38,983 bases of DNA, taken from contig JAUXZV010000023.1 of NCBI GenBank assembly GCA_030693825.1, positions 1 to 38,983 on the forward strand, given 5' to 3'. The first letter of the stretch is position 1, and every line of letters begins with the position of its first letter. The position numbers were made by a program, and so were the translations under genes. Shown here piece by piece: positions 4,191 to 35,838 of the stretch. The notes beneath the pieces were generated by a model. It worked only from the letters and a program-made list of their open reading frames with translations, ran no database searches and was not told the DNA's origin. This stretch comes from Myxococcales bacterium (GTDB taxonomy: Bacteria; Myxococcota; Myxococcia; Myxococcales; Myxococcaceae).

Positions 4191-6148
4191 CGGCTGCTGC
4201 GCGCGTTCGCTGGCCCATCGTCTTCGCCTTCAGTGTGTTCGGCGCCTGTACCTGCGTCGCTCCACGCGAAGACCTCATCTACGCCTGTGAGCCTGATGGC
4301 TCGTGCCTCGAGGCGGGCCGCGCGTGCGTTCAAGGCCGCTGCGTGCCCATGTCGAACGGTGGAGGACGAGCGGGCGGTGCCGCGGGAGGCGTGGCGGGTG
4401 GAGCGGCAGGCGGCATGGCTGGTGGTCTCGCCGGTGGAATGGCCGGCGGTGACGCGGGCGGCATGGCCGGTGGAATGGCCGGCGGTGACGCGGGCGGCAT
4501 GGCCGGTGGAATGGCCGGTGGTGACGCGGGCGGCATGGCAGGTGGAATGGCCGGCGGCGACGCGGGCGGCATGGCCGGTGGAATGGCAGGTGGAGCGGCG
4601 GCGGGCGGCATGGCCGGAGGAATGGCCGGTGGCGACGCGGGCGGCATGGCGGGAGGAATGGCAGGTGGAGCGGCGGGCGGCATGGCCGGTGGCGACGCGG
4701 GCGGTGTGGCTGGCGGCAGTGCAGGCGGCTCCACGGCAGGTGGAAGCGCAGGCGGCTCGACGGCGGGTGGCAGCGCAGGCGGCTCCGACGCGGGGTGCGT
4801 TCCCTCGGGAGGCACCGACTTCCCCGACGAGAACGGCCTCGACTCGAACTGCGACGGCATCGACGGTGACGCGACGCTGGCCGTCTTCGTCGACGGCACC
4901 AACGGCGTCGACACCAACGCAGGCACTCTGACGCTCCCGTTCCGCACCATCGCGCGCGGCCTCGACGCCGGTCGCCCGCAAGTTCTGGTCTCGAGCGGCA
5001 CGTACGCCGAGTCGCTCGGGCTCGGCACCGGAGGCTTTGGCATCTACGGTGGCTACGACGCGACCTCCTCGTGGGCCCGCACCGCGATGCGGCCCATCGT
5101 CACCCGGCCCATCGTCATCGTCGGTGATGGCGGCACGCTCGCCCTCGACTTCCTCCGCGTGGCGACGACGAACGCGACGTCCTCTCGCAGCGCCGTCTAT
5201 GCGCTCATCGTCGAAGACGCTCCCGCTGGCGTCGTCATCAGCCGCTGCGAGTTCTCCTCAGGCCGCGGTGGCGACGGCTTCAACGGGATGCCCGGGACCG
5301 TCGGCGCCTCTGGAGGGTCTGGCACCCGAGGTGGGAGCGGAGGTGACGGCGGCCTTGGCGGTGCGGGTGGTGCTTCGACGTGCGGGGTCGGCGGACTCCC
5401 AGGCGCGCGCGGCGGAGTCAGTGGCGCTCTCGACGGCGAGACCATCGGCGGGGGAGGCATCGGCGGCGCGGGCCAGACGTGCGACGGAGCGCCCTGCGAG
5501 GCCACCTCGGGTGGACGTGGCCTCGACGGCGTCGATGGCGGTCGTGGACCCGATGGCGCGGAAGGCACGAGCCCTGGGCTGATCGTTGGCCGCCGCTGGG
5601 CTCCCGTCGATGGCCGAAGCGGCGATGGCGGAACACCCGGTCTTGCAGGCCGGCCTGGTGGCGGAGGTGGCGCCGTCTTCGACTCCGACGCAGGCGTGGT
5701 CGCGCGTGGCGGTGGCTCCGGAGGCACGGGCGCAGGTGGATGCCCCGGTGGCGGTGGTGGAGGTGCCCAGTCGGGCGGCGCGTCGATCGCGGCGTTGTTG
5801 ATCAACGCCTCGCCCTCGTTCGACCGCTGTGCCTTCACGACGAGCGGCGGCGGTAACGGTGGCCAGGGAGGCTTCGGCGGCGCAGGCGGCATCGGCGGGT
5901 CCGGTGGCGCGAGTGGCGAAGGGGAACAACTCGGTGGCCTCCTTGCGGGCGACGGCGGCATCAGCGGCCGCGGCGGTCCGGGAGGGGGGGGCGGCAACGG
6001 TGGTCGTGGCGCGGGTGGCCCTTCGATTGGCGTCTGGTGTGAGGGGGCGTCGACTCCAGTCTTCATGGCGCCCTCGTTCACGGTGGGCTCTGGAGGAACC
6101 GGCGTCGTCACCGGCTTGTCGGCGCAGCGCACCGGGACTTGCCCCTGA
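4187..6148 (+). CDS. secreted Cys-module / Gly-rich tandem-repeat / right-handed beta-helix plus GGxGG-rich protein (paralog 1)
   Basis: 654 aa from an in-frame ATG of the 3227..6148 ORF. Signal peptide MTAAARVRWPIVFAFSVFGACTC. Cys module ACEPDGSCLEAGRACVQGRCVP. (GGMAGGMAGGDA)n repeat. Beta-helix N-cap LPFRTIARGLDAGRPQVLVSSGTYAES. A long GGxGGxGG (PGRS-like) Gly-rich C-terminus. Confidence 0.75.
   Translation: MTAAARVRWPIVFAFSVFGACTCVAPREDLIYACEPDGSCLEAGRACVQGRCVPMSNGGGRAGGAAGGVAGGAAGGMAGGLAGGMAGGDAGGMAGGMAGGDAGGMAGGMAGGDAGGMAGGMAGGDAGGMAGGMAGGAAAGGMAGGMAGGDAGGMAGGMAGGAAGGMAGGDAGGVAGGSAGGSTAGGSAGGSTAGGSAGGSDAGCVPSGGTDFPDENGLDSNCDGIDGDATLAVFVDGTNGVDTNAGTLTLPFRTIARGLDAGRPQVLVSSGTYAESLGLGTGGFGIYGGYDATSSWARTAMRPIVTRPIVIVGDGGTLALDFLRVATTNATSSRSAVYALIVEDAPAGVVISRCEFSSGRGGDGFNGMPGTVGASGGSGTRGGSGGDGGLGGAGGASTCGVGGLPGARGGVSGALDGETIGGGGIGGAGQTCDGAPCEATSGGRGLDGVDGGRGPDGAEGTSPGLIVGRRWAPVDGRSGDGGTPGLAGRPGGGGGAVFDSDAGVVARGGGSGGTGAGGCPGGGGGGAQSGGASIAALLINASPSFDRCAFTTSGGGNGGQGGFGGAGGIGGSGGASGEGEQLGGLLAGDGGISGRGGPGGGGGNGGRGAGGPSIGVWCEGASTPVFMAPSFTVGSGGTGVVTGLSAQRTGTCP
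4360..4790. repeat. in-frame 36-nt tandem repeat (about 8 units) encoding (GGMAGGMAGGDA)n, with a degenerate tail
   Basis: The unit ggcggcatggccggtggaatggccggcggtgacgcg recurs with few substitutions across about 4410-4700. The antisense reading gives the spurious PPAMPPAS ORF at 4330..5043. Confidence 0.85.
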
Positions 6149-6238
6149 GGCACTGGGGAGATTCTCTTCCGAACGTTCGTTTTGTGGTGTCGATCTCGGC
6201 GGGCGTCGGCCGGCGCTCACTTCTCGGGGAGCTCTCCA

Positions 6239-8584
6239 GTGCGTCTGATCACTCTTGGCTGCGCAGTCGTGCTCGCGGTGTCTGCTTCGGGGTGTAGCTG
6301 CGGCGTCGTTCCCATTGACGACGACGGAGGCGTGGCCGGCGGGTCTGCGGGCGGCACCTCAGGGACGGGTGGTGGCGCCTCGGCCGGCGGTGCCGCGGGT
6401 GGGAGTGCCGGTGGAGGCGATGCAGGAGGAAGCGCCGCGGGTGGGAGTGCTGCTGGAGGGGATGCAGGAGGAAGCGCCGCAGGTGGCAGCGCCGCGGGTG
6501 GCAGCGCCGCAGGTGGAAGCGCCGCAGGTGGCAGCGCCGGAGGTGCCGCCGTCAATGATGCGTACGTGTGTGGCAACTGCCCGGGCGCGAACAACTCGAA
6601 CCCGGGAACGCGAAACAGCCCGGTCTCGACCATCGGCCGTGGCATCCAGCTGGCCACGATGAACAACGGCGCGCGCGTCTACGTGGCGGCCCGCTTCGGC
6701 GGCGCGACCGTGAACTACTCCGAAGACGTCACGATGGTCGAAGGCCGTTCGCTCGAAGGGCGATGGTCGGTCACCGGGAGCGCCGGCAACTTCACGTGGA
6801 CCCGCAACGGTCCCCGCACGTCGATTCGCAACACTGCGGCCACGGGGTTGAAGTTCCCTGCAGGCCTCACGGCGGCGACCTCGCTCGACGGGTTCTCGAT
6901 CGAGAAGAGCGGCCCTGGCCTCGTCGGCGGCCGCGTCACGGGCATCACCATCACGCAGAGCGCTCCCGTCGTCCGTGACTTCGACGTGGCGCCTCCCCAG
7001 ATCGCCATCGGCACCGCTGCCGATGCCATCGGCATCGACGTGCTTGGCACCATGACCGCTCCCGCTGCGCCGTCGCTTCAAGGCGGAGGCCCCGCGAACA
7101 GCACGGTGAACGCGGGCTCTGGCTCGACGTCGAGCGTCGGTCTCGCGGGCCTCTTCGCGCGTGTCACGGTGGCGGGCGTCGACTTCAGGGCAGAGAACGG
7201 CGGCACCACCTCGGCGGGCGTCTTCATCATCAGCAGCCCGGGCTCGACCTTCACTCGAGGCACGTACACGGCAGGCGCCGCCAACAGCTGCTTCGGCTTC
7301 GCGTCGTCGGGCGAAGCGAGCGGAACGCGCGTCGAGGGCGTGACGGCCGTCGGCTGCCCGCGCGTGGCCAACGTGATGAACGTGCCTCGCTTCGGTGTCG
7401 GCGTGTTGTTCGACAACTGCCCCGCGCTCTCTCCGGGGAGCGGCAACCCCATCGTTCGCAACGTCACCGCGACGGGCGGCGTCGTCGGAGGCAACAACAG
7501 CTCGGCCGTCGGAGGCGCCGCGCTCGACGGGTGTGCCGTGCGCTTCGAGGGCACGGCAGGGAGCTCCGCGACGTTCACCGGCGCCTCCCAGGCTCCAGCG
7601 TTCGGCATGGGGCCCGAGAACACCGTCGGCATCGCCTGCTCGTTCGCCGGCTTCCGCAACCCCAACGGCTTCGACGCGCGCTGCTCCATCTCAGGCGTCT
7701 CGGCCTTCGGTGGCTTCGTCTCGGCGCCCAACTCCATTGGCCTCGCGTGCGATGGAACGTGCGGCAATCAGCCCGCCTCGTGTCGCGGCTCGTGCGACGA
7801 GCTCGCGAACAACACCTTCTCGGCCGCCTCGGGCACCCAGATGAACCACGTGCTCCTGCGCAACTCGTCGCCGAGCCTTCGGGCCAACCGGCTTGGGGTC
7901 GGCGGCAACGGCATCACCTGCGGCAACAACGCGACCGTCGTCGGCATGACGCTCCAGGGCTCTGCAGCGTCCGTCATCAACAACCTCATCGTCGGCGGCC
8001 CGTGCCTCACCAGCATCGGCGTCTCGAATCAGCTCGCCCAGCGCTCGGATGGCTCGACGCCGTCGGCGAACTTCCACTCGAACACCATCGTCTCGAGGAC
8101 CTCTGGCGGTGGTTCGCCGTCGCTCAACAGCATCGGCGCGCAGCTGGTGGGGCCGGCAGGCTCGGCGACAGCCCTCGTCGGGAGCACGTGGCGGAACAAC
8201 ATCTTCTTCGCTGGCCCGGCGCAGGGCTCGGGCTCGGTGGCGGTGGCGTTCCGCGAGACGAGCACCGGCGCAGACCCGGCCACGCTCGGCAACAACCTGT
8301 TCTTCACCGACTCGCCCAGCCTCAACCCGCCGCTGTACTTCGATGAAGGCACGACGGCGCTCACCACCACGGCGGCCATCAATGGGCTGATGGGGTCCTC
8401 CGGCAACGTCGCCGGCGACCCGGACTTCGTGAACGCGGGCAACGGCAACTACGCGCCGGCCAGCCCGTCACCGGCGCGCGCAGCAGGCACGACGACAGGC
8501 GCGCCGGCGGTCGACTTGAACGGCGCCAGCCGCCCCAACCCGGTGGGCAGCAACCCCGACATCGGCTGCATCGAAGTCAACTGA
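6239..8584 (+). CDS. lipoprotein-type secreted right-handed parallel beta-helix (pectin-lyase-fold) protein with a Gly-rich repeat linker (paralog 2)
   Basis: GTG at 6239 is preceded by GGGGAG 8 nt upstream. Lipoprotein-like signal VRLITLGCAVVLAVSASGC. A (GGSAA)n linker. Beta-helix cap VSTIGRGIQLATMNNGARVYVAARFGGATVNYSEDVTMVEGRSLEG, followed by many N/G/T/S-rich beta-helix turns over about 700 aa. Alternative start at 6182. Confidence 0.75.
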   Translation: MRLITLGCAVVLAVSASGCSCGVVPIDDDGGVAGGSAGGTSGTGGGASAGGAAGGSAGGGDAGGSAAGGSAAGGDAGGSAAGGSAAGGSAAGGSAAGGSAGGAAVNDAYVCGNCPGANNSNPGTRNSPVSTIGRGIQLATMNNGARVYVAARFGGATVNYSEDVTMVEGRSLEGRWSVTGSAGNFTWTRNGPRTSIRNTAATGLKFPAGLTAATSLDGFSIEKSGPGLVGGRVTGITITQSAPVVRDFDVAPPQIAIGTAADAIGIDVLGTMTAPAAPSLQGGGPANSTVNAGSGSTSSVGLAGLFARVTVAGVDFRAENGGTTSAGVFIISSPGSTFTRGTYTAGAANSCFGFASSGEASGTRVEGVTAVGCPRVANVMNVPRFGVGVLFDNCPALSPGSGNPIVRNVTATGGVVGGNNSSAVGGAALDGCAVRFEGTAGSSATFTGASQAPAFGMGPENTVGIACSFAGFRNPNGFDARCSISGVSAFGGFVSAPNSIGLACDGTCGNQPASCRGSCDELANNTFSAASGTQMNHVLLRNSSPSLRANRLGVGGNGITCGNNATVVGMTLQGSAASVINNLIVGGPCLTSIGVSNQLAQRSDGSTPSANFHSNTIVSRTSGGGSPSLNSIGAQLVGPAGSATALVGSTWRNNIFFAGPAQGSGSVAVAFRETSTGADPATLGNNLFFTDSPSLNPPLYFDEGTTALTTTAAINGLMGSSGNVAGDPDFVNAGNGNYAPASPSPARAAGTTTGAPAVDLNGASRPNPVGSNPDIGCIEVN
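6405..6545. repeat. in-frame 15-nt tandem repeat encoding (GGSAA)n
   Basis: ggtggcagcgccgca-type units repeated about 9 times. The antisense reading gives the spurious PPAALPPAAL ORF at 6217..6666. Confidence 0.8.
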
Positions 8585-22178: not shown

Positions 22179-23306
22179 TCACTCGGCCAGCGCGCGCAGC
22201 GTCGACAGGCGCTCGAGCTCGTCCTCCGGCAGGTGCGTGCCCGACGAGCCGGTGTAGCCAAAGTAGAGCCGGTCAGAGAGCTGCGTGAAGCACTGCCGCG
22301 CCAGGGCCGACTTCGGGTTCTCGCGGATGCAGGCCTCGAAGAAGAGCAGGTCGACGTCCCACAACAGCGGAGACTTCAGCGCGCCCGTGCAGAGGCCGAG
22401 CAGGAACAGCGCCTCGCCACGCTGCGGGAGCGCCGGGTTCTTGTGCAGCGCCAGGTTCAGGTACGCGCTCGCGCGCAGGTAGGCCACGACGTACGTCTCG
22501 TCGGGCAGGTAGCTGCGTGGGCCGCTCGCCTGCCGCACGAGCGCCTTGGCCTTCGCGAAGAGGTCCTTCGCCGACGCGCGCTGGGCATCGAAGCCTTCCT
22601 TCTTCCAGGCCAGCACGTCTTTGCGCCAGGCCGCGACGGGCCGCTTGAGGAACGGCGCCACGTCTTCGCGCTTCGCGAGCCCTTCGAGGAACACGTCGGC
22701 GGCCTTCGGGTCGTCCTTCACGCGGACCAGCAGCGTCAGCAGGTCCTTGATGGCGCGGGCCTGCACGAGGAGCGAGCGCTCGTCCTTCGCCGGCTGCGCG
22801 ATGAGGGCGCCGTACGCGTCGATGGCCTTGTCGAACTGGCGCGTCGCCGCGAGGTACTGCGCCTTGTCGAACGGCGAGAGCTTCATCGCGTCGAGGTGCT
22901 TCTCCATGTCCTGATAGTCGGCGGGCGCGCGCTCGCGGCTGTGACAGGTGAAGCACAGGCTCATCAGCGTGCGTACGCGGGAGGGAACGGTCTCTCGGTC
23001 ACCAAAAGTGAAGCGGCGGCGGGTCTCGAGGGCGTACTGCGAGAAGAGGCCCGACAGCGCCGCGGTGGCAGGCTCCTGCGCCTTCGCGTCGGCGGGGAAG
23101 GCGTGCTTCAGACCCGCGAGGGCGTCGAGGCGCCGGGTGATGTCCTCGGCCTGGAGTGGGTCTCGCAGCCGCTCCGGGTGGGCGACGAGCGGCTCGAGGC
23201 CGAACAACGCGTCGAGGGCGCTTCGCATGGCGGCCTGGGTCGGCGTCGCGACTCCGGCGTCTGGGGTCGCGACCGTCAAGACGGAGACGAGGAAGAACGG
23301 CGTCAT
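22179..23306 (-). CDS. secreted hypothetical protein with a single CXXCH (c-type haem-binding-like) motif; co-transcribed with the DMT transporter
   Basis: N-terminal signal MTPFFLVSVLTVATPDAG. Motif LMSLCFTCHSRERAP. Otherwise helical with TPR-like composition. Stop 5 nt before the transporter start. Confidence 0.65.
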   Translation of the reverse strand: MTPFFLVSVLTVATPDAGVATPTQAAMRSALDALFGLEPLVAHPERLRDPLQAEDITRRLDALAGLKHAFPADAKAQEPATAALSGLFSQYALETRRRFTFGDRETVPSRVRTLMSLCFTCHSRERAPADYQDMEKHLDAMKLSPFDKAQYLAATRQFDKAIDAYGALIAQPAKDERSLLVQARAIKDLLTLLVRVKDDPKAADVFLEGLAKREDVAPFLKRPVAAWRKDVLAWKKEGFDAQRASAKDLFAKAKALVRQASGPRSYLPDETYVVAYLRASAYLNLALHKNPALPQRGEALFLLGLCTGALKSPLLWDVDLLFFEACIRENPKSALARQCFTQLSDRLYFGYTGSSGTHLPEDELERLSTLRALAE

Positions 23307-23350: not shown

Positions 23351-24919
23351 TCACCCCTTCGTGAGCTCGCGCAGCCGGCGCGCCGCTTCGGCGCTCATCG
23401 CGAACGGCGCCAGCACCAGCCGCTGGGCTCCGGTGGCGACGGTGCCGACCGACGTGGCGACCGCGCACAACGGGAGCGGCGGCTGCGCGTCGACCTCGAG
23501 GCTCGCCAGCACGTGCTCGGCCAGCATGCCCTTGCCCTCGAGCACCAGGGCTCGAGGCATGAACGAGACGACCTTGAAGCGGTCCTCGCGCCGACGGCTG
23601 TTCACCACGAACACGTCCTTCGCCGGGGCCGGGGCTGTGGCCGGTGGCTCGGCTGGGAGCACCCGAGTCGACGCGGCCTTGGACGTTGGCGCCTCTTCGA
23701 GTGAGGCGACGGCCTCGGCCAGCGGTGGCAGCGCCTTCACCAGGTGCGCGCGCTCGTCCGCCGTGAGCGCCGGCACGGCGGCCAGGGTGGCGTCGGTGAC
23801 CTCGTCCACCTCGGAGACGACGCGGACGATCTGCGCCGAAGCCAGGACGAGGTCGATCATCGCCGGAGCCTCACAGCCCGAACTGCCCGCGCCAGACTGC
23901 GTGCTGATGACCTCTCCCAGCGTCCTCGGCAGGTGCCAGCGCTTCGCCGTCAGCGCACCGAGCTCGGCGCGGAAGACCTCGAGCACGCGCAGCCAGAACG
24001 AGAGCGGCTGCGCAGCAAAGGTGGGGTGCTCCGAGAGGAAGATCTCGAGGCTCAGCGTGCCGACGATGGAGCCCAGGGGTTGGAGCAGGCCAGCGAGGAA
24101 GCTCTCGTCGGGCTGAAGACCGCGCCGGGTGCCGAGCGCGCGGTTCACCATCGCCGTCGTCACGCTCCGATGCCACAGGTGCAGGCGCACGGGCGACAAA
24201 GCTCCGACCGTCGTCGTCGCGCCGCCGACGCCCGCTGCGATGGCCAGGCGAGCGACCTCCTTCATGCCCAGCCGTTTCACGGCCATCGCCAACGAGGTGA
24301 CCGGTTGCCCTCGGGCGTAGATCGGCGCATTCACCAGGTGGAGCAGCTCGGCCGCCAGCGTCGCGTCGCTCGAGATGACCTTCGCGATCTGCTCGGGGGT
24401 GGCGTCGGCCGACCGCGCGAGCTCGGCCACCTTGAACGCCACGGCAGGGAACGGTGGGACGCGCACCGAGCCGCGCTCCAGAATCGCCATCATCGCGGCG
24501 CCTACGTCGAGCAGGCGCTGGTCGGGCACCGACGGCATGAAGGCCTGCGGGGCCTGCGCCGAGCGGGCCCTGGCGTTGACGGCCTCGATGAGCGCCTCGA
24601 GCACCTCGGCGTCGGAGCGGCCCGTCGTCGCGATGTCGCGCCGCACGGCTGCGTTGAACGCTGCGTGCTTCGAGATGTCTTCGTACCGAATCGCCAGCGT
24701 GCTGCCGCACTCGCAGTTGGCGAAGCTCAACAGCCCGATGGCGTCGTCTTCGTCGTCGTCAGGGTCGAGCTTCGGCGCGCCGATGCGCTTCGTCGACTCG
24801 AGGTAGCTGAGGAACGTGGGGTGGGGCCGGCGGCACGCGGAGCACGCCCGGGGAAACTGGGCGCAGCATGCGGCGAAGACCGAGTCCTCGAACGACGCGA
24901 GGGCCAAAGGCGAATCCAT
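23351..24919 (-). CDS. HDOD-domain signalling protein with an N-terminal Cys-cluster module
   Basis: HDOD core PFPAVAFKVAELARSADATPEQIAKVISSDATLAAELLHLVNAPIYARGQPVTSLAMAVKRLGMKEVARLAIAAG. The N-terminal 80 aa carry CC...CSAC...CEC cysteines (zinc-binding-like). Confidence 0.75.
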   Translation of the reverse strand: MDSPLALASFEDSVFAACCAQFPRACSACRRPHPTFLSYLESTKRIGAPKLDPDDDEDDAIGLLSFANCECGSTLAIRYEDISKHAAFNAAVRRDIATTGRSDAEVLEALIEAVNARARSAQAPQAFMPSVPDQRLLDVGAAMMAILERGSVRVPPFPAVAFKVAELARSADATPEQIAKVISSDATLAAELLHLVNAPIYARGQPVTSLAMAVKRLGMKEVARLAIAAGVGGATTTVGALSPVRLHLWHRSVTTAMVNRALGTRRGLQPDESFLAGLLQPLGSIVGTLSLEIFLSEHPTFAAQPLSFWLRVLEVFRAELGALTAKRWHLPRTLGEVISTQSGAGSSGCEAPAMIDLVLASAQIVRVVSEVDEVTDATLAAVPALTADERAHLVKALPPLAEAVASLEEAPTSKAASTRVLPAEPPATAPAPAKDVFVVNSRRREDRFKVVSFMPRALVLEGKGMLAEHVLASLEVDAQPPLPLCAVATSVGTVATGAQRLVLAPFAMSAEAARRLRELTKG

Positions 24920-24996
24920 CAGCGAAATCTACCAGTCACCGTGGCGAAGTCGTCGTCCGCCACCGACATGGGAGGCTGCTCGACGCCAGTCAGCGA

Positions 24997-25401
24997 CTAC
25001 TTCATCGCCGCGACTTCGAGGCGCTTCTGCTCGCGTCGAATGAGGTCGCGCTGCGGCTCGGCCTTCGGGTCGGTCACCTCGAGGCCCTTGAGCTTCTCTT
25101 CGGCCTCGCTGATGCGCTTCTTCGCCGCCGCCGTGTCGATGTCCTTCGCGGGCTGGGCGGAGTCGGCCAGGACGCGAACGTTCTGAGCGCCGACCTCGAC
25201 GAAGCCGCCAGCGACGAAGAACAGCTCGCTCGTGCCACCGGTCTTCACGGTGAGGGGGCCCGGCATCAGCAGCGAGAGGAACGGCGCGTGGCCGGGGCGA
25301 ACACCGAACAGACCCTCGGCACCGGGAGCGATGACCTCGTCGGCTTCCAGCTGCGCCAGCCGGCGCTCAGGAGTGACGACTTCGACTTTGAGCTTCGCCA
25401 T
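24997..25401 (-). CDS. atpC: F0F1 ATP synthase subunit epsilon
   Basis: 134 aa MAKLKVEVVTPERRL...APGAEGLFGVRPGHAPFLSLLMPGPLTVK...VAGGFVEV, the typical AtpC beta-sandwich plus helical tail. The track ORF extends 5' into the atpD coding frame and is not real there. Confidence 0.92.
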   Translation of the reverse strand: MAKLKVEVVTPERRLAQLEADEVIAPGAEGLFGVRPGHAPFLSLLMPGPLTVKTGGTSELFFVAGGFVEVGAQNVRVLADSAQPAKDIDTAAAKKRISEAEEKLKGLEVTDPKAEPQRDLIRREQKRLEVAAMK

Positions 25402-25421: not shown

Positions 25422-26954
<1,533 letters not shown>

Positions 26955-26986
26955 TCAAGGCGGATCAATGGGCAGCACGCCGTGAC

Positions 26987-28768
26987 GTGAGCCGCGCTTC
27001 ACTCTTGTATGCGGCTGGCTCCGGCTGCGCGCGGAGCGGCTATGGTGATTCCGTGCGTTGGACCACGATCAGTTTGCTGCCAATGGTGCTCGCGGGGTGC
27101 AGCCTTCCCACGGGTGTGAGCTTCAGGTGTGAGTCAGACGGCGCGTGCCCGGACGGCCTTCGGTGCGTCGCGCTCGACGCGGGCCGATACTGCCTCGACG
27201 TCGATGGCGGTGCGGCGGGTGCTGGGACCGCGGGTGGAGGAGTCGCAGGCGGCGGAACGTCAGGCGGCGGAACGTCAGGCGGCGGAACGTCAGGCGGCGG
27301 AACGTCAGGTGGCGGAACGTCAGGCGGCGGAACGTCAGGCGGCGGAACGTCAGGCGGCGGAACGTCAGGCGGCGGAACGTCAGGCGGCGGAACGTCAGGT
27401 GGCGGAACGTCAGGCGGCGGAACGTCAGGTGGCGGAACGTCAGGTGGCGGAACGTCAGGTGGCGGAACGTCAGGTGGCGGAATCGCAGGTGGCGGAACGT
27501 CCGGCTGCGGAGCACCCCTCGATCTCGCCGATACCCTCTACGTCAGCGTCGACGGCGGGAGCGATTCGAACAGCGGCGTCTCGCCAACCGCTCCCTTCGC
27601 GACCGTCACCCACGCGCTCACCCGCGCAGTCTCTCTTGGTCGCTCGGTGATCGCGGTAGCGCCTGGCGTCTACTCGGAGCCAGTCGTCATCGGCTCGGCG
27701 CACGCCGGCCGCACGGTGACAGGCGGGTTCCTCGCCGATTGGACCCGGGACTGTGCCGCAGACGCTCGAGACCGGACCGTCATCGACGCGCCCGCTGGGG
27801 TCGGCATCGCGTTCTCCAGCATCTCGGGCCCCGAGGTCATCGTGCGCCGAATGACGGTCCGCTCTGGTCCGACGGCTCAGAAGGGCGGCTCGACGTACGG
27901 TGTTCGCGCGCTCGCTTCGAACGTCTCCCTGCACGACGTGGTGGTGATCGCCGAACCGGCGAGCGAGGGGCGCATGCCGGCGTCACCTGTCGACATGACG
28001 GGGACCACGCTGTGCCTCGGCGTCAGTGACTGTTCCACGGGCGGCGCGGGGTCTCGAGGCGCAGCGGGCAGGTCTGCAGATGGCGGTTGGTTCGACGCGA
28101 TGGGCTTCTTGCCGGGCGTCGGAGAGACTGGAACCCCGGGTGGGCCTGGCTTCAACGGAACCCCGCCGCCGCTGCCTGTTCCCGCGAACTGCGCGACGTG
28201 CAGCGGCTCGACGCCTTGCAACGGCAGTAACCTGTTCTGCGGGAACACGACCGGAGCCATGAGCGGCACTCGTGGCCGATGCGGCTGCGGCGGCCTCGGT
28301 GGTCTCGGCGCAGCTGGTGGAATCGGCGGCGGCGCGTCCATCGCCCTGTTTGCCTCGGGTAGCAGTCTCGTTCGCGTCACGAACTCCGTGCTGCGTTCGA
28401 GAGCAGGCGGCGCGGGCGTTGGCGGCGCCTTCGGTGGCCTCGGAAGCCTCGGCTCGTCTGGTGCTCGTGGCAACCCGACCGCCTGCATCGACCCAAACGG
28501 CGCCAACTGTTCTCGCATGCGGTGCAACGACAACTGCGAGCCGAGCGGCCAGGTGCTGGCGGTTGCTGGAGGCGCTGACGGTGGGACTGGCGGCACGGGT
28601 GGAGCCGGTGGGCCCGGTGGGGCCGGCGCGGGCGGCCCTTCCATCGGCGTCGTCTCGGTCTTCAGCACGGTGACGCTCACCGCGTCGACGGTCAACACGG
28701 GCTTCCCTGGCCCTGCAGCGGACGGCGGTCAGCCTGGCTTCTCGCAGCAGACCCTGACGATTCCGTAG
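26987..28768 (+). CDS. lipoprotein-type secreted Cys-module / (TSGGG)n tandem-repeat / beta-helix plus GGxGG-rich protein (paralog 3)
   Basis: GTG start (alternative GTG at 27053 gives a cleaner lipo-signal MRWTTISLLPMVLAGCS). Cys module RCESDGACPDGLRCVALDAGRYCLDV. 16x TSGGG. Beta-helix cap PFATVTHALTRAVSLGRSVIAVAPGVYSEPVVIG. Cys-rich NCATCSGSTPCNGSNLFCG. GGLGGLGAAGGIGGGASIALF and GGxGG tracts as in paralog 1. Confidence 0.75.
   Translation: MSRASLLYAAGSGCARSGYGDSVRWTTISLLPMVLAGCSLPTGVSFRCESDGACPDGLRCVALDAGRYCLDVDGGAAGAGTAGGGVAGGGTSGGGTSGGGTSGGGTSGGGTSGGGTSGGGTSGGGTSGGGTSGGGTSGGGTSGGGTSGGGTSGGGTSGGGTSGGGIAGGGTSGCGAPLDLADTLYVSVDGGSDSNSGVSPTAPFATVTHALTRAVSLGRSVIAVAPGVYSEPVVIGSAHAGRTVTGGFLADWTRDCAADARDRTVIDAPAGVGIAFSSISGPEVIVRRMTVRSGPTAQKGGSTYGVRALASNVSLHDVVVIAEPASEGRMPASPVDMTGTTLCLGVSDCSTGGAGSRGAAGRSADGGWFDAMGFLPGVGETGTPGGPGFNGTPPPLPVPANCATCSGSTPCNGSNLFCGNTTGAMSGTRGRCGCGGLGGLGAAGGIGGGASIALFASGSSLVRVTNSVLRSRAGGAGVGGAFGGLGSLGSSGARGNPTACIDPNGANCSRMRCNDNCEPSGQVLAVAGGADGGTGGTGGAGGPGGAGAGGPSIGVVSVFSTVTLTASTVNTGFPGPAADGGQPGFSQQTLTIP
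27240..27490. repeat. near-perfect in-frame 15-nt tandem repeat (about 16 units) encoding (TSGGG)n
   Basis: caggcggcggaacgt repeated head-to-tail. The only variation is g/t at one position (caggTggcggaacgt). Antisense frames give the spurious LTFRHLTFRR and AAERQ ORFs. Confidence 0.9.
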
Positions 28769-28805
28769 CGCAGCGCGACCCAAGCGCCGACGTCGAGTCG
28801 GTTGT

Positions 28806-28829
28806 GCTGAGGGCCCGCGCTCCCTCAGC
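28806..28829. terminator. GC-rich hairpin between convergent genes (candidate bidirectional terminator)
   Basis: gctgaggg-cccgcgct-ccctcagc: 8-bp perfect stem with an 8-nt loop, located between the stop of the paralog-3 gene (28768) and the stop of the minus-strand NHL lipoprotein (28836). No clear U-tract. Confidence 0.4.
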
Positions 28830-28835
28830 CAGTGA

Positions 28836-30149
28836 CTACGGCAACGCGTGGAACAGCGGCGTGCCCTTCGCGGCCGGGTAGAACGCCGGGCCTTGCGGAC
28901 TGCCGAGCGACGAGCCGGTGATGATGGTGTCGGGCACCGTCGGCGCTCCCGAGCCGGTGCTCACCGTCAGTTGTGCCGGAGCCAGCCGAGCGAGGTTGCC
29001 CGCGCTGTACGGGAGCCACAGCCCGCCACCTTCATCGAACGCGAGCCCTTCGAGCACCGCGCTCACCGGGAGCGAGATGCGCACCAGCGGCGTCGCCGAC
29101 CGGGGACCGGTGCCGGGGAGCTCCGCGGCGGGGACGGCGAACACCAGGTTGAGGCCGAAGTCGTAGCTCCACAGGTTCCCGTCCTTGTCGAACGCCAGCG
29201 CGTCAGGCTTCAGCGCAGAGGGGTCGGCTGGCTGGTCTGACTTGCGGGCCTTCACCCGGCGCGTGGCCGTTGCCGAGGCGCCGTCGAGTGACCCGAAGTC
29301 GTAGCGCAGCAGCTCCTCGGTCGACGAGTCGGAGACCCAGAGGTTGCCGTCCTTGTCGAAGGCCAGGCCCGAGACCGCCATGAAGCCGGTCAACGTCAGT
29401 GAGGGCGTGACGGTGCTCGAGCCATCGAGCGACGCCGCCGGCAGCTTGTAGACCTCACGCTTGCAGCTCGAGCCCACGAAGAGGTTGCCGTTCTTGTCGA
29501 AGGCGAGGGCGCTGGCGCGCGGGAAACAGTTCACGCCGGCCACCTCGATGCGGCGGTCGGCCATCGGCGCGGCAGGCGTCGCGAAGCCCTCGGCTGGGAA
29601 GCGGGCGATCAACGGGTCCACCGTCGTGTTGCCCAGCGCCCAGAGGTTTCCTTCTTTGTCGAAGGCGGTCGAGCCGCTCGCTGCGAGGTTGGCGTTCCAC
29701 GACGAGGTGACCGTGGCCGTGGTGGCGAGGCTCGCCGAGTCGAAGGCGTGCGTGCTGCCCATGCCGCCCGAGCTGTTGCCGACCCACAGGCGGTTGCTGG
29801 TGGCGACCTTCGTCCACGTCACCGTGACCGCTTGCGTGGCGTCCTTCACGAGGCAGAAGTTCGGCGCCGACGCACGCGCGGCGTAGACGGTTCGAACGAG
29901 CGGATCGCTGACGGTGACGAGGCCACCTGAGACCGCCCAGGTCCCCGCGCCCACCATCACCGTCTGGCCCATGGTCAGCGTCTGCGACGTCGGGCCCATC
30001 AGCGTCACCGTGCCGTCCGTGCCTGCGGGCAGGCCCGCGAACGTCACCGCGATGGAGCCAGTACCGGTCGTCGCGCAGGCGCCAGGCGGAGGCGGGCAGG
30101 CGAACAGCAGCAGCGCGCTGGGGAGCAGGAGCAGGGCTGGAGTTTTCAT
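28836..30149 (-). CDS. lipoprotein with NHL/SMP-30-like beta-propeller repeats
   Basis: Lipobox MKTPALLLLPSALLLFAC. Five to six repeats of ALAFDK(D/N)GNLW(V/A) spaced about 45-60 aa apart. Confidence 0.75.
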   Translation of the reverse strand: MKTPALLLLPSALLLFACPPPPGACATTGTGSIAVTFAGLPAGTDGTVTLMGPTSQTLTMGQTVMVGAGTWAVSGGLVTVSDPLVRTVYAARASAPNFCLVKDATQAVTVTWTKVATSNRLWVGNSSGGMGSTHAFDSASLATTATVTSSWNANLAASGSTAFDKEGNLWALGNTTVDPLIARFPAEGFATPAAPMADRRIEVAGVNCFPRASALAFDKNGNLFVGSSCKREVYKLPAASLDGSSTVTPSLTLTGFMAVSGLAFDKDGNLWVSDSSTEELLRYDFGSLDGASATATRRVKARKSDQPADPSALKPDALAFDKDGNLWSYDFGLNLVFAVPAAELPGTGPRSATPLVRISLPVSAVLEGLAFDEGGGLWLPYSAGNLARLAPAQLTVSTGSGAPTVPDTIITGSSLGSPQGPAFYPAAKGTPLFHALP

Positions 30150-30261
30150 GAGGGCGGAACGAAGCACAGGCCCTGCCAACGCTCCAATGGCCAGAAGCCG
30201 GATGGTTGTCGTGGGGCTTCGTGACGCCAGCCGTCACAGGTGTGGCTTCGAAGGTCGGCCT

Positions 30262-33096: not shown

Positions 33097-33771
33097 TTAC
33101 GGTGCTCGCCACCCTGAAGCGCTCGGAGCCTTGAGCTGCTCCATCAGCGCCAGTGGGGCCATCAACACGTAGAGCGTCCACATCGTCAGCGTGAACAACA
33201 CCCCTGACGACGCCGCGCCCCACCGCAGCCACCCGCGACGAAGCTCCCAGAACCGCGCGCTGCGCAGTTCGCTGGCATCGGGTGCAAGCGTGGAAAGGAA
33301 CTCCCGCGTGTACGACTCGTGGACCGCTTCATCGACCATCACCGCGTCGAGGAGCGCTTTCGTCTTCGTGTCCGCGCGGGCCGTGCCTTCGAACGCGGCG
33401 AGCTCATCGCGGAACAGCTTCATCTGCGCGCGGCCACGCTTCTCGCCGAGGTGCACGAAGGCCAGGAAGCGCACTTCGCCCAATCGCGTGAACAGGTGCT
33501 CGAAGTCGGCGCGTGCGACCGAGTCGTCGAAGGCGAGCGTCGGGTCGAGCTCCACGGCGCGCAGCGAGAACATCTGCGCGTGGCGATTCTCGTCGACGGC
33601 GTGGCTCAGGTATTTGGTCCGGCGCGAGAGATCGCTCGTGGTGTTCGCCGCCTCCATCATGTCGAAGAAGCTGGAGCGCTCGGCGCGCGCGAACGCCATC
33701 AACATGCGCGCGGTGGCCCGTGGGCTTCGCCAGCGAAACGGCTTGAGCAGTCGCGCGAAGACGAGCCGCAT
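33097..33771 (-). CDS. hypothetical protein, possible ferritin-like/di-iron fold
   Basis: 224 aa. Paired acidic/His motifs (FFDMMEAAN...HAVDENRHAQMF...EAVHESYTREF) are reminiscent of ferritin-like ExxH pairs. C-terminal hydrophobic helix. 3-nt gap after the upstream SGNH gene. Confidence 0.5.
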   Translation of the reverse strand: MRLVFARLLKPFRWRSPRATARMLMAFARAERSSFFDMMEAANTTSDLSRRTKYLSHAVDENRHAQMFSLRAVELDPTLAFDDSVARADFEHLFTRLGEVRFLAFVHLGEKRGRAQMKLFRDELAAFEGTARADTKTKALLDAVMVDEAVHESYTREFLSTLAPDASELRSARFWELRRGWLRWGAASSGVLFTLTMWTLYVLMAPLALMEQLKAPSASGWRAP

Positions 33772-33774
33772 GGG

Positions 33775-35838
33775 TCAGGGCGCTCCGCAGAAGTCGCCGG
33801 TCGGCCACGGGTGGCACGTGCCCGTCGCGCAGGGCGCCGAGGTGTTACAGGGGACGGCGCAGCGACGGAGCGCACCGGAGGGCACTTCGCCCTCCTTGCA
33901 GGTGATGGCCCGGAGCGGGTTCGACCACTCCACTGGCTCACAGCGCCGGTTGCGACAGGGCTTCCCGTCGGCATCCATCACCTTCCAGTCTGGGCGCTCG
34001 GCCTTCCGTTTCGGCTCCTTGTCGTCGAAGGCCCGCTTCGGCGCGGCGCCTTTCGGGTGCTCGAGGATGAGCTCGCGGGTGTGGTCTTCCCACGCGACGT
34101 CGAGGACGGTCGTCTCTCCCTCGAGCACCGGCAGCATCACGGTGCGCTGGTTGTACGAGCCGTCGAGCAACACATCGCCATGGCCTCCACGGAGCACCTG
34201 AATCGCGGCGATGCGCAGCGTCGGAGCCTCGTCATCATCAGGGTAGAAATCCCGGCACGTCATGCGGAACCACTCGCGCACCTGCCGGGTCTCGCAGTTC
34301 GACGCGGTCGAGCCCTTCACGTTCACCTCAGGCACGGCGCGCCACTCGTCGTCCGTCGGCGGCCACGAACGACCTTCTGGCAACACGAGTGCGCTCTTCG
34401 GCTTCGGTTTCGAGTCGAGCGCCACGTGGAGCGCTTCAGCGAAGGCACGATGGCCCTTCGGCGTGAGGTGAAGGTCGCCGTCGAGGAACGCGCCGGGCTC
34501 GGCCTTGCGGAGCGCCTCGGTCGGGTCGAGCGCGAGCGCACCAATCGCTTCAGCGCGTGACACGATGTCGTCGAGCAGGACCTGCGTGACCGAGAGGTCG
34601 ACAGGCTCCTTGCCGTACTTCTTCCACTCGTCCTTCGAGACCATCACGTCGAGCGGAAGCGCGACCACCAGCAATGTCGCTCCCGCCTGGTCGCAGGCGT
34701 CCTTCGTGCGCTGGAAAAGAGCCTCGAGCGGCGTGACGGCGTGGGCGTCTGAAGTACCCAGCGTCGAACCCAGTGCGATCCGCAGCGCCTTGCGCTTCTC
34801 GACGAGCGCCTTCAGCTCGGCGTCCTTCGTCTTCTCGGCGATCGCGAGCAGCTTGTCTTCGTTGCCCTCGATGCCGAGCGCCGCCGTGTAGAGCTGGTGC
34901 GCGGTGACGTCGACGGCGCGCGCGCCTTCCATGAACGGCACCTGCACGATGTCGCGCGGGTCACCGTTCTTGAGCGGCGGGAGCACCTTCGCGGCCTGCG
35001 CGTACGGCTCGTTCTGGTTGATCCGGTCCGTCACGTGACGGTCGAGCTCGAGCTGAAGCTCGTCGAGCTGCTTCGTCGTCGCGTTGCGCTTCTCGAGCGC
35101 CTCCTTCGTCGCGGTGTCGTCGCGCTCCAGCGGCTTGGTGACCGACGACGCCGTGACGATGTCCTTCCACGTGCCTTCGCCAGCGCTCTCTTGCGCGAGG
35201 TTCACCGAGCCGGCCATGAGGCGGCGGGCCGCGTAGACGAGGTGAGAACCGTTCATCACCGCGTGCCGGAACGGGAAGTTCACCGTCGAGGTCGGAGCCG
35301 TCTCGCTGCGCACCGCCCAGCCGTCCCACACGTGGTGGCGGCCGCTGTTCGGCTTGCCGAGCTCGAAGAGGTCGTTCGACACGTTCATCACGTAGACGAC
35401 GTGCTTCGGCTTTCGCTCGGCGACGAGGCGCTCGACCAGCGCCGTGTATTCGCCCGGGCCGTACGTCGGCACGCCCGCGTTGAGCACGTTCACTTTCCGA
35501 ATCGCCGCCAGCTGCGCCGAAAACGTCTCGCCGTCTTCCACGCCGAGTCCGAAGACCTGCGAGTCGCCGACCACCAGGACGTCGGTCGGAGCAGGGGATG
35601 CCCAGTCGCTCCCGCGGAAGCCGAGCGCGTTGGTGTGAATGGTCGTCGTCGGGTTGGTGCCGAGCTTGAGCTTCATCTGCGCGTTCGGCGCGAGCTTCAC
35701 GCCGAGCGACGCGTCTTCTTCGTAGAGGTTCAGGTGAGGGAACGCGCCGTCGTCACGCGCACGGAAGACGAGCTCGGCGATGACGACGCCAAGGGTGAGC
35801 CCGACGAGCACCTTCACGACCGCAGAGAGGACGCGCAC
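33775..35838 (-). CDS. membrane-anchored SGNH/GDSL-type hydrolase-like protein with a C-terminal Cys-rich module
   Basis: N-terminal TM (VLSAVVKVLVGLTLGVVIAELVF). GDS block VLVVGDSQVFGLG. Later LDGDLHLTPKGHRAFAEAL (the DxxH block of SGNH). The C-terminal 60 aa contain about 11 Cys (PCRNRRCEP...CAVPCNTSAPCATGTCHPWPTGDFCG). Confidence 0.7.
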   Translation of the reverse strand: MRVLSAVVKVLVGLTLGVVIAELVFRARDDGAFPHLNLYEEDASLGVKLAPNAQMKLKLGTNPTTTIHTNALGFRGSDWASPAPTDVLVVGDSQVFGLGVEDGETFSAQLAAIRKVNVLNAGVPTYGPGEYTALVERLVAERKPKHVVYVMNVSNDLFELGKPNSGRHHVWDGWAVRSETAPTSTVNFPFRHAVMNGSHLVYAARRLMAGSVNLAQESAGEGTWKDIVTASSVTKPLERDDTATKEALEKRNATTKQLDELQLELDRHVTDRINQNEPYAQAAKVLPPLKNGDPRDIVQVPFMEGARAVDVTAHQLYTAALGIEGNEDKLLAIAEKTKDAELKALVEKRKALRIALGSTLGTSDAHAVTPLEALFQRTKDACDQAGATLLVVALPLDVMVSKDEWKKYGKEPVDLSVTQVLLDDIVSRAEAIGALALDPTEALRKAEPGAFLDGDLHLTPKGHRAFAEALHVALDSKPKPKSALVLPEGRSWPPTDDEWRAVPEVNVKGSTASNCETRQVREWFRMTCRDFYPDDDEAPTLRIAAIQVLRGGHGDVLLDGSYNQRTVMLPVLEGETTVLDVAWEDHTRELILEHPKGAAPKRAFDDKEPKRKAERPDWKVMDADGKPCRNRRCEPVEWSNPLRAITCKEGEVPSGALRRCAVPCNTSAPCATGTCHPWPTGDFCGAP

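Follow-up and report, generated by a model that had tools for sequence, protein, structure and literature searches.

Size-variable surface lipoproteins built on tandem repeats are known from Mycoplasma, the Vlp-type proteins being examples, and Borrelia ospC, flagellin and O-antigen loci are hypervariable loci under balancing or diversifying selection. For linkers of outer-membrane lipoproteins in E. coli, disorder and length matter for Lol sorting while the sequence does not, and GS repeats of similar length can substitute for them (bioRxiv 10.1101/2021.01.05.425367). Among myxobacteria, TraA is described as a polymorphic cell-surface receptor (PMC6372800, PMC3820747). In this study, we analyzed a stretch of 38,983 nucleotides from a Myxococcales bacterium (assembly GCA_030693825.1, contig JAUXZV010000023.1, positions 1 to 38,983), hereafter called the window, and therein a 15-nt tandem repeat array inside a gene for a predicted lipoprotein of 571 amino acids. 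With a probability of roughly 0.7, we read this array as a coding minisatellite that provides a flexible, disordered tether joining a lipid-anchored module with four cysteines to a disulfide-rich beta-helix, and that borders an allelic cassette. All sequences compared are consensus short-read metagenome assemblies. Orthologous loci from other assemblies are designated L001 to L008, the allele of the window is designated W, and the features are listed in Table 1.

Head-to-tail 15-nt units occupy 27246-27500 of the plus strand, where a print of the sequence in 15-nt register gave 17 units. Sixteen of these match CAGGYGGCGGAACGT, an exact pattern for which 0.00 occurrences were expected from 100 dinucleotide-preserving shuffles. 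The remaining unit (CAGGTGGCGGAATCG, 27471-27485) encodes GGGIA and is directly followed by a final consensus unit at 27486-27500, while units 1-15 (27246-27470) are all contiguous and read CAGG[C/T]GGCGGAACGT. Degenerate Gly-rich units border the array on both sides (27206-27245 and 27501-27515). Tandem Repeats Finder (TRF) gave its top score in the window, 453, to 27246-27511 (period 15, 17.7 copies, 95% matches). In codon register (27248-27502) the unit is GGY GGC GGA ACG TCA, and the array lies in frame within the open reading frame (ORF) 26987-28768, where it encodes (GGGTS)n. The original prediction for this DNA had been right in describing 16 near-perfect units with a single polymorphic position, an in-frame, Gly-rich linker, and a unit length divisible by three, which at 15 nt (five codons) keeps the frame at every unit change. 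Its coordinates of 27240-27490 ended about 10 nt short of the real 3′ end; its mention of a 70% GC genome did not hold for the window, where the GC content was measured as 68.6%.

The longest exactly repeated substring within the array measures 94 nt (27246 = 27336), from which it follows that units 1-6, whose variable sites read C C C C T C, were duplicated as units 7-12, a block of six units or 90 nt. The variable site is the first Gly codon of the unit (GGC or GGT; 27250 and then every 15 nt), and the same C/T polymorphism occurs in the arrays of every orthologue (L001, L004, L005, L007), either as a shared within-array polymorphism or as a recurrent transition in CpG context. In the window, C-type units prevail in the 5′ half of the array and T-type units in the 3′ half. 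When the array was folded as single-stranded DNA, it had no special hairpin propensity (z = -1.45). A minus-strand ORF at 27123-27515 and ORFs in other frames across the array were rejected as high-GC artefacts; they are absent where the array is absent (L002).

Translation starts at a GTG at 27053, in agreement with the NCBI call and with ATG or GTG at the same position in orthologues. The encoded protein, P0001, is the single member of its cluster. The motif L-A-G-C, which we take to be the lipobox, makes Cys16 the predicted lipidated residue, and signal peptide and lipobox are kept in L001, L002 and L007. Signal peptide, lipobox and the 14 conserved cysteines would suggest a location in the envelope or at the surface. 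In the full-length AlphaFold2 (AF2) model, the four-Cys module, which has a beta-hairpin at residues 37-48, reached values of 63-76 in the predicted local distance difference test (pLDDT). Disorder is predicted for the linker, with pLDDT values of 34-42 across residues 53-149 and no secondary structure (residues 53-57 and 59-149, all below 50). More than 22 disordered residues therefore separate the lipidated Cys from the globular domain, and the disordered segment begins 36 residues past Cys16. The C-terminal domain was modelled as a right-handed parallel beta-helix with pLDDT values above 90, and E. coli YbhC is among its structural matches; for its last approximately 240 residues, a Gly- and Cys-rich extension, none of the top structural matches provides a solved counterpart. 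One Cys at the linker end and 13 further cysteines of the domain are invariant among orthologues. The protein ends in ...FSQQTLTIP without a C-terminal sorting tag. Scans of the 571-residue protein against Pfam (E ≤ 0.1) and NCBIfam returned no family; an above-threshold match to PF07602 was not found for it, a family that is on record only in distant homologues, among them P0009, P0022 and P0023. Likewise, a promoter and terminator scan around the gene and an Rfam scan of the window found nothing.

Table 1. Coordinates of the features described (positions refer to the window unless another locus is named)
Feature	Position	Strand	Remarks
Upstream intergenic region	26922-27052		atpD divergent; lies in tract differing between two same-species metagenome-assembled genomes (about 91% vs 99-100% identity further out)
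Lipoprotein gene, 571 aa	27053-28768	+	identical to P0001, NCBI 'hypothetical protein Q8N26_06545', Myxococcales bacterium metagenome-assembled genome
Predicted signal peptide with lipobox, MRWTTISLLPMVLAG before the Cys	27053-27100	+	read from translation
Four-Cys N-terminal module, 32 residues (SLPTGVSFRCESDGACPDGLRCVALDAGRYCL)	27101-27196	+	conserved in orthologues
Gly-rich linker, 103 aa, 21 Gly-rich units (16 of them GGGTS)	27197-27505	+	unit parsing
C-terminal domain, 420 residues, 14 Cys	27506-28765	+	right-handed parallel beta-helix, then Gly-rich solenoid-like part
Spacer between convergent genes	28769-28835		3′ boundary of divergent tract; 96-100% identity again from 28845
Arrays compared for rare codons	window 27248-27502; L001 6154-6405; L004 5-136; L005 1-222; L007 1108-1749		
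Gly-rich repeats, 36/72-nt and 27-nt periods	4381-4794	+	linker of distant paralogue, gene about 4241-6148; TRF, translation
Imperfect 15/42-nt Gly-rich repeat	6392-6545	+	linker of adjacent lipoprotein-like gene 6182-8584; TRF, translation

The gene was found in conserved synteny among the orthologues, with atpD/atpC upstream and a beta-propeller gene downstream, both on the minus strand, and its linker differed in length from locus to locus. The window has 21 units (103 aa), L001 has 17 (88 aa) and L007 has 42 (215 aa). In L002 and L003, which come from two samples, there are zero linker units in an intact gene, and RYCL-GTPG-CG joins the modules directly, which argues that exact length is not critical. 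Contigs of L004, L005 and L006 stop within the array after at least 9, 15 and 15 units, respectively, and L008 has about 30 units of a different type, GGSAA. All arrays of the clade have the unit types GGYGGCGGAACGTCA (TS), GGYGGCGGAATCGCA (IA) and GGYGGCGGAGTCGCA (VA) in common and arrange them in differing homogeneous runs, for example VA six times, IA five times and TS eight times in L007. Orthologues freely swap TS for IA, VA or AA units, and the lone IA unit and the leading VA unit of the window look like remnants at the array edges. The domains of L005 and L007 differ by a synonymous divergence (dS) of only 0.10, yet their arrays are arranged differently. Linker length is accordingly labile in evolution, with units homogenised within each lineage. 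This is the pattern expected if units are gained, lost and homogenised by slippage or unequal recombination. An in-frame tandem repeat in a lipobox gene with 0, 17, 21 or 42 copies at the syntenic orthologous locus also corresponds to a coding variable number tandem repeat (VNTR). The original prediction had proposed recent expansion or ongoing homogenisation, which fits the lineage-wise homogenised units and the six-unit duplication, and had suggested counting copies in relatives, an invariant count being the sign of an old, stable repeat; the counts vary. The difference between W and L001 (21 vs 17 units, flanks about 99% identical) is linked to replacement of the whole allele.

Linkers of more distant orthologues from Myxococcaceae metagenome-assembled genomes (MAGs; L008 2620-2995, L006 1-225) belong to another unit family, GGSAA/GGNVA, with units of 12-15 nt. 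The linker thus keeps its position, but its repeat unit is replaced over longer time scales. At E ≤ 1e-30, the protein family comprises at least 671 clusters. In 99 of their representatives that have a lipobox-like motif, a low-complexity spacer of 2-267 aa (median 59 aa) separates this Cys from the domain. The distant member P0122 has a different tandem peptide repeat at the same linker position (DTETGEFP six times, residues about 110-160), from which it follows that repeat-encoded linkers arose more than once in the family. A metagenome scan for relatives gave three weak or partial loci only. Two further searches were unproductive: with the non-repetitive half of the domain as query, P0002 only was retrieved and even the identical protein was missed, and the 49-aa N-terminal module gave no candidates.

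Two other functions of the array were weighed against that of a flexible tether. The Gly-rich segment could form a polyglycine-II or collagen-like assembly or be an array of Thr/Ser O-glycosylation sites, for which the Thr-Ser in each unit and the conservation of a rare-codon unit across lineages might speak. We consider this very improbable, since AF2 gives no structure, the replacement of TS by IA, VA and AA in orthologues leaves the hydroxyls unconserved, and one orthologue has lost the whole segment. Alternatively, the array could be a contingency locus that mutates at high frequency in clones, with selected length variation tuning reach or exposure of the beta-helix. A near-perfect array with a multi-unit internal duplication, large copy-number differences between relatives, and breaks of orthologous contigs in the array, which could reflect length heterogeneity in populations, are all compatible with such a locus, and size-variable repeat lipoproteins are known, e.g. 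the Ureaplasma multiple banded antigen (MBA; PMC3637154). However, the comparison rests on consensus assemblies of different lineages, k-mer limits of the assemblies account for the contig breaks equally well, and a unit of 15 nt, a multiple of 3, allows no ON/OFF switch. Furthermore, classic tracts are simple sequence repeats of 1-8 nt (PMC5084427), the L002/L003 orthologue works without any linker, and the family-wide spacer of 2-267 aa is under no obvious constraint. High-frequency switching is not needed to explain the data, and we regard a contingency locus as quite unlikely.

A further question concerns the reliability of the assemblies. Three independently assembled contigs end inside the array (L004 1-140, L005 1-225, L006 1-225), and N-terminal truncation affects four of the seven homologues that are closest in the database; P0002, P0005 and P0006 start at an internal Met because their contigs end in the array. 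A further locus, L013, is homologous to L008 only from about position 1187, inside the array, and its upstream 1.2 kb are unrelated, which suggests a chimeric join or a rearrangement. It could thus be that the repeat exists, but that the count of 17 units and the C/T pattern were produced by short-read assembly or a strain mixture, given that contigs terminate or may be chimeric in the array and that the whole data set consists of metagenome assemblies. This is unlikely: because its longest exact internal repeat is 94 nt, the window array is in principle resolvable at k ≥ 95 or with 150-nt reads, the independent assemblies L001 and L007 span complete arrays in frame, and the repeat type was recovered in five or more independent assemblies. 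In practice, assemblies from short reads routinely end or are wrongly joined in this array, so that copy numbers and N-termini in databases are unreliable.

The array also marks the edge of a larger feature that was absent from the original prediction, an allelic cassette. W was compared with L001 (GCA_030696265.1) over 12 kb of flanks, which are 99-100% identical, with most 200-nt windows at 98-100% and atpD at 99.6% on the nucleotide level and 98.6% at four-fold sites. Along the locus, the upstream intergenic region is about 91% identical, the N-terminal module about 88% and the array about 85%; from the array end to the stop codon, identity falls to 59-63%, before it returns to 96-100% from 28845. 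The domain as a whole has 62% nucleotide identity, a dS of 1.45 and a dN/dS of 0.25, compared with a dS of 0.028 in the adjacent propeller gene (Nei-Gojobori for all), so that synonymous divergence of the domain is about 50 times that of the flanks. Between W and L007, identity is about 90-100% through the TS part of the array, 57-74% from the array end to the stop codon and 83-97% beyond, and the 5′ edge of the divergent cassette is the 3′ end of the array. In the N-terminal module, dS between orthologues is about 0.3 (Nei-Gojobori, from 48 codons only), as against 1.2-1.45 in the domain.

The phylogeny of the domain conflicts with that of the flanks. Nucleotide identities of flank (propeller gene) and domain are 99% and 62% for W and L001, 92% and 82% for W and L004, 91% and 64% for W and L007, 78% and 67% for W and L002, and 91% and 85% for L001 and L007; for L005 and L007 the domain only was compared (95%). 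In the domain tree, W groups with L004, and L001 groups with L005/L007. The five or six sequences thus fall into two or more allele classes of ancient origin, class A with W and L004 and class B with L001, L005 and L007, which segregate in one species-level lineage and are shared across sister species. The alleles W and L007 are both intact and under overall purifying selection (dN/dS 0.2-0.3), which indicates that both are functional. The flanks of W and L001 are interrupted by patches of 84-95% identity (23056-23255, 24056-24255, 24856-25053, 33445-33644 and 34045-34244), the lowest of them near the HDOD gene/atpC intergenic region, and these patches look like a recombination mosaic. A viral scan found no relatives, and a phage origin of the cassette is accordingly without support.

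Compatible with a role as tether, the array might in addition act as a recombination hinge, where shared units give the homology for a crossover in the array that, with a second crossover downstream, swaps the beta-helix cassette between strains or species. Several observations would fit. The deep divergence of class A from class B starts at the array 3′ end, with identities between W and L007 of about 90-95% before and 57-74% after it, W and L001 are 85% identical across the array and 59-63% thereafter, dS is far lower in the N-terminal module than in the domain, and identical 15-nt units are common to alleles of both classes. On the other hand, the tract replaced between W and L001 also covers the N-terminal module and, upstream of it, the intergenic region (88-91% identity), and since it extends beyond the array, that exchange used flanking homology and not the array. 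Moreover, there are five or six alleles only, the boundary was located from identity profiles, the N-terminal dS comes from 48 codons, and a boundary at the domain junction could also stem from different selective constraints on the two modules. We consider a hinge possible but doubtful.

Selection may act on the alleles. The divergence makes the cassette a candidate target of balancing or diversifying selection in a group with social behaviour, where the protein could, for example, be a phage receptor or serve in the recognition of glycans or of self. More speculatively, the gene could be an unrecognised polymorphic recognition or receptor locus of uncultured Myxococcota, in which ancient classes would be kept by negative frequency-dependent selection (phage, predator-prey or kin) and swapped as cassettes between strains and sister species, with the tether as flexible stalk and homology hinge; we hold this full scenario to be rather improbable. 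A literature search on bacterial trans-species polymorphism returned papers on the vertebrate major histocompatibility complex only. As a candidate, a SitA-like polymorphic toxin was rejected: the domain is a beta-helix and no toxin fold, and there is no immunity gene, the downstream gene being the convergent propeller, which is 99% conserved between the allele classes.

In the preferred reading of the array as a coding minisatellite, it encodes most of an intrinsically disordered, Gly-rich tether of about 100 residues, and it changes as whole units and blocks of several units are gained, lost and homogenised, presumably through replication slippage or unequal homologous recombination. Linker length therefore drifts widely among lineages (0 to 42 units) with the reading frame kept. 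A spacer function of the tether is most likely; it may let the beta-helix move freely and reach out from the membrane, and it possibly aids lipoprotein sorting, its disorder being important and its exact length and sequence not. The array stands where a conserved 5′ module, made up of promoter, signal peptide, Cys module and linker, meets a 3′ cassette of anciently diverged classes.

Several points weigh against this reading. The length comparison covers consensus assemblies of different lineages, and copy numbers could be wrong where the three contigs end inside the array. The 32-residue Cys module intervenes between the lipidated Cys and the linker, unlike in the E. coli cases, and in the linker-less L002/L003 the tether is dispensable in at least one lineage, which weakens an essential role in sorting or reach. 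Also, the gene is known here from its sequence, with expression, lipidation and localisation presumed. Finally, a purely neutral spacer does not explain the rare codons of the unit that are kept across lineages (GGA, 8% of Gly codons; TCA, 6% of Ser codons; GCA, 6% of Ala codons in genome usage). They stand at fixed positions in all orthologue arrays of both allele classes, though four-fold sites of the domain are saturated between the classes. This retention could come from avoiding pure (GGC)n runs, from a constraint at the DNA or RNA level, or from younger common ancestry of the 5′ module.

Two further genes of the window have Gly-rich repeat linkers. They are adjacent to each other (4241-6148 and 6182-8584) and have a common layout of signal, Cys motif or lipobox, Gly-rich repeat linker and beginning of a beta-helix. 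Their repeats had been predicted to be less perfect, and TRF agrees with this (4430-4692, period 36, 88% matches; 6410-6545, period 15, 75% matches). Their designation as paralogues stood for the first gene, which is homologous to the family profile over 362 columns (hhalign, 99.4% probability), and only in part for the second, where homology is confined to the first approximately 130 residues after the linker (profile comparison, 96.4%); BLASTP of the target against each of the two detected no similarity. The second gene ends in a 'choice-of-anchor Q' domain (NF041518, E 1.4e-6). The convergent gene downstream of the target (28836-30179, minus strand) encodes 447 aa with a lipobox-like N-terminus (LLLFAC) and weak matches to NHL/SGL-like beta-propellers (PorZ-like, ScyE/ScyF-like). 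In the two MAGs with differing target genes, this downstream gene is 99% conserved.

Compared with known systems, the locus resembles in its repeat MBA of Ureaplasma, a lipoprotein with an in-frame tandem repeat whose copy number varies between strains or lineages with the frame preserved (PMC3637154). Unlike in MBA and Vlp proteins, where the repeat is an exposed, antigenic C-terminal one and size variation has been shown within infections, the repeat here forms an internal Gly-rich spacer ahead of a folded domain, and the host is a free-living myxobacterium known only from MAGs. With contingency loci of Neisseria and Haemophilus it shares a repeat tract in the coding region of an envelope-protein gene (envelope as judged by the lipobox) and presumed slipped-strand mispairing. 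It differs from them (PMC5084427) in its 15-nt unit without frameshift ON/OFF switching, as a length change by five codons keeps the frame.

In its layout, the protein resembles RcsF, Pal, NlpD and LpoB, with a lipobox, a long, low-complexity, predicted-disordered segment and a globular domain. In contrast to these, a four-Cys module precedes the linker, which is far longer (103 aa) and encoded by a near-perfect DNA repeat, and a close orthologue lacks it; the linker-less L002/L003 suggest that it may not be universally required for outer-membrane targeting. E. coli YbhC, the structural match of the domain, is itself a lipoprotein with a pectinesterase-like beta-helix, and compared with pectin-lyase-like proteins (DUF1565/PF07602, pectin methylesterase, Pel9A, phage tailspikes) the target is without Pfam or NCBIfam match. 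Like the variable domain of Myxococcus TraA, the cassette has deeply diverged alleles (here dS 1.2-1.6) in a conserved context that do not follow the species tree. A TraA homologue was rejected, as there is no PA14-like domain, no MYXO-CTERM and no shared domain in Pfam/NCBIfam, and only the population-genetic pattern is alike; the dN/dS of about 0.25 in the target domain means overall purifying selection within the alleles.

Taken by itself, the repeat is a coding minisatellite of an ordinary kind that gives a lipoprotein its flexible tether, and it offers a natural example of how widely a tether can vary in one orthologous protein, here between 0 and more than 200 residues. We rate the overall interest as moderate and see it mainly in the ancient allelic cassette adjoining the array, as in this clade the domain of a large, uncharacterised family of beta-helix lipoproteins segregates as anciently diverged alleles. 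As a coding VNTR, as a disordered tether of a lipoprotein and as a hypervariable locus for an envelope protein, the feature joins known kinds of element, here within a myxobacterial family that is uncharacterised.

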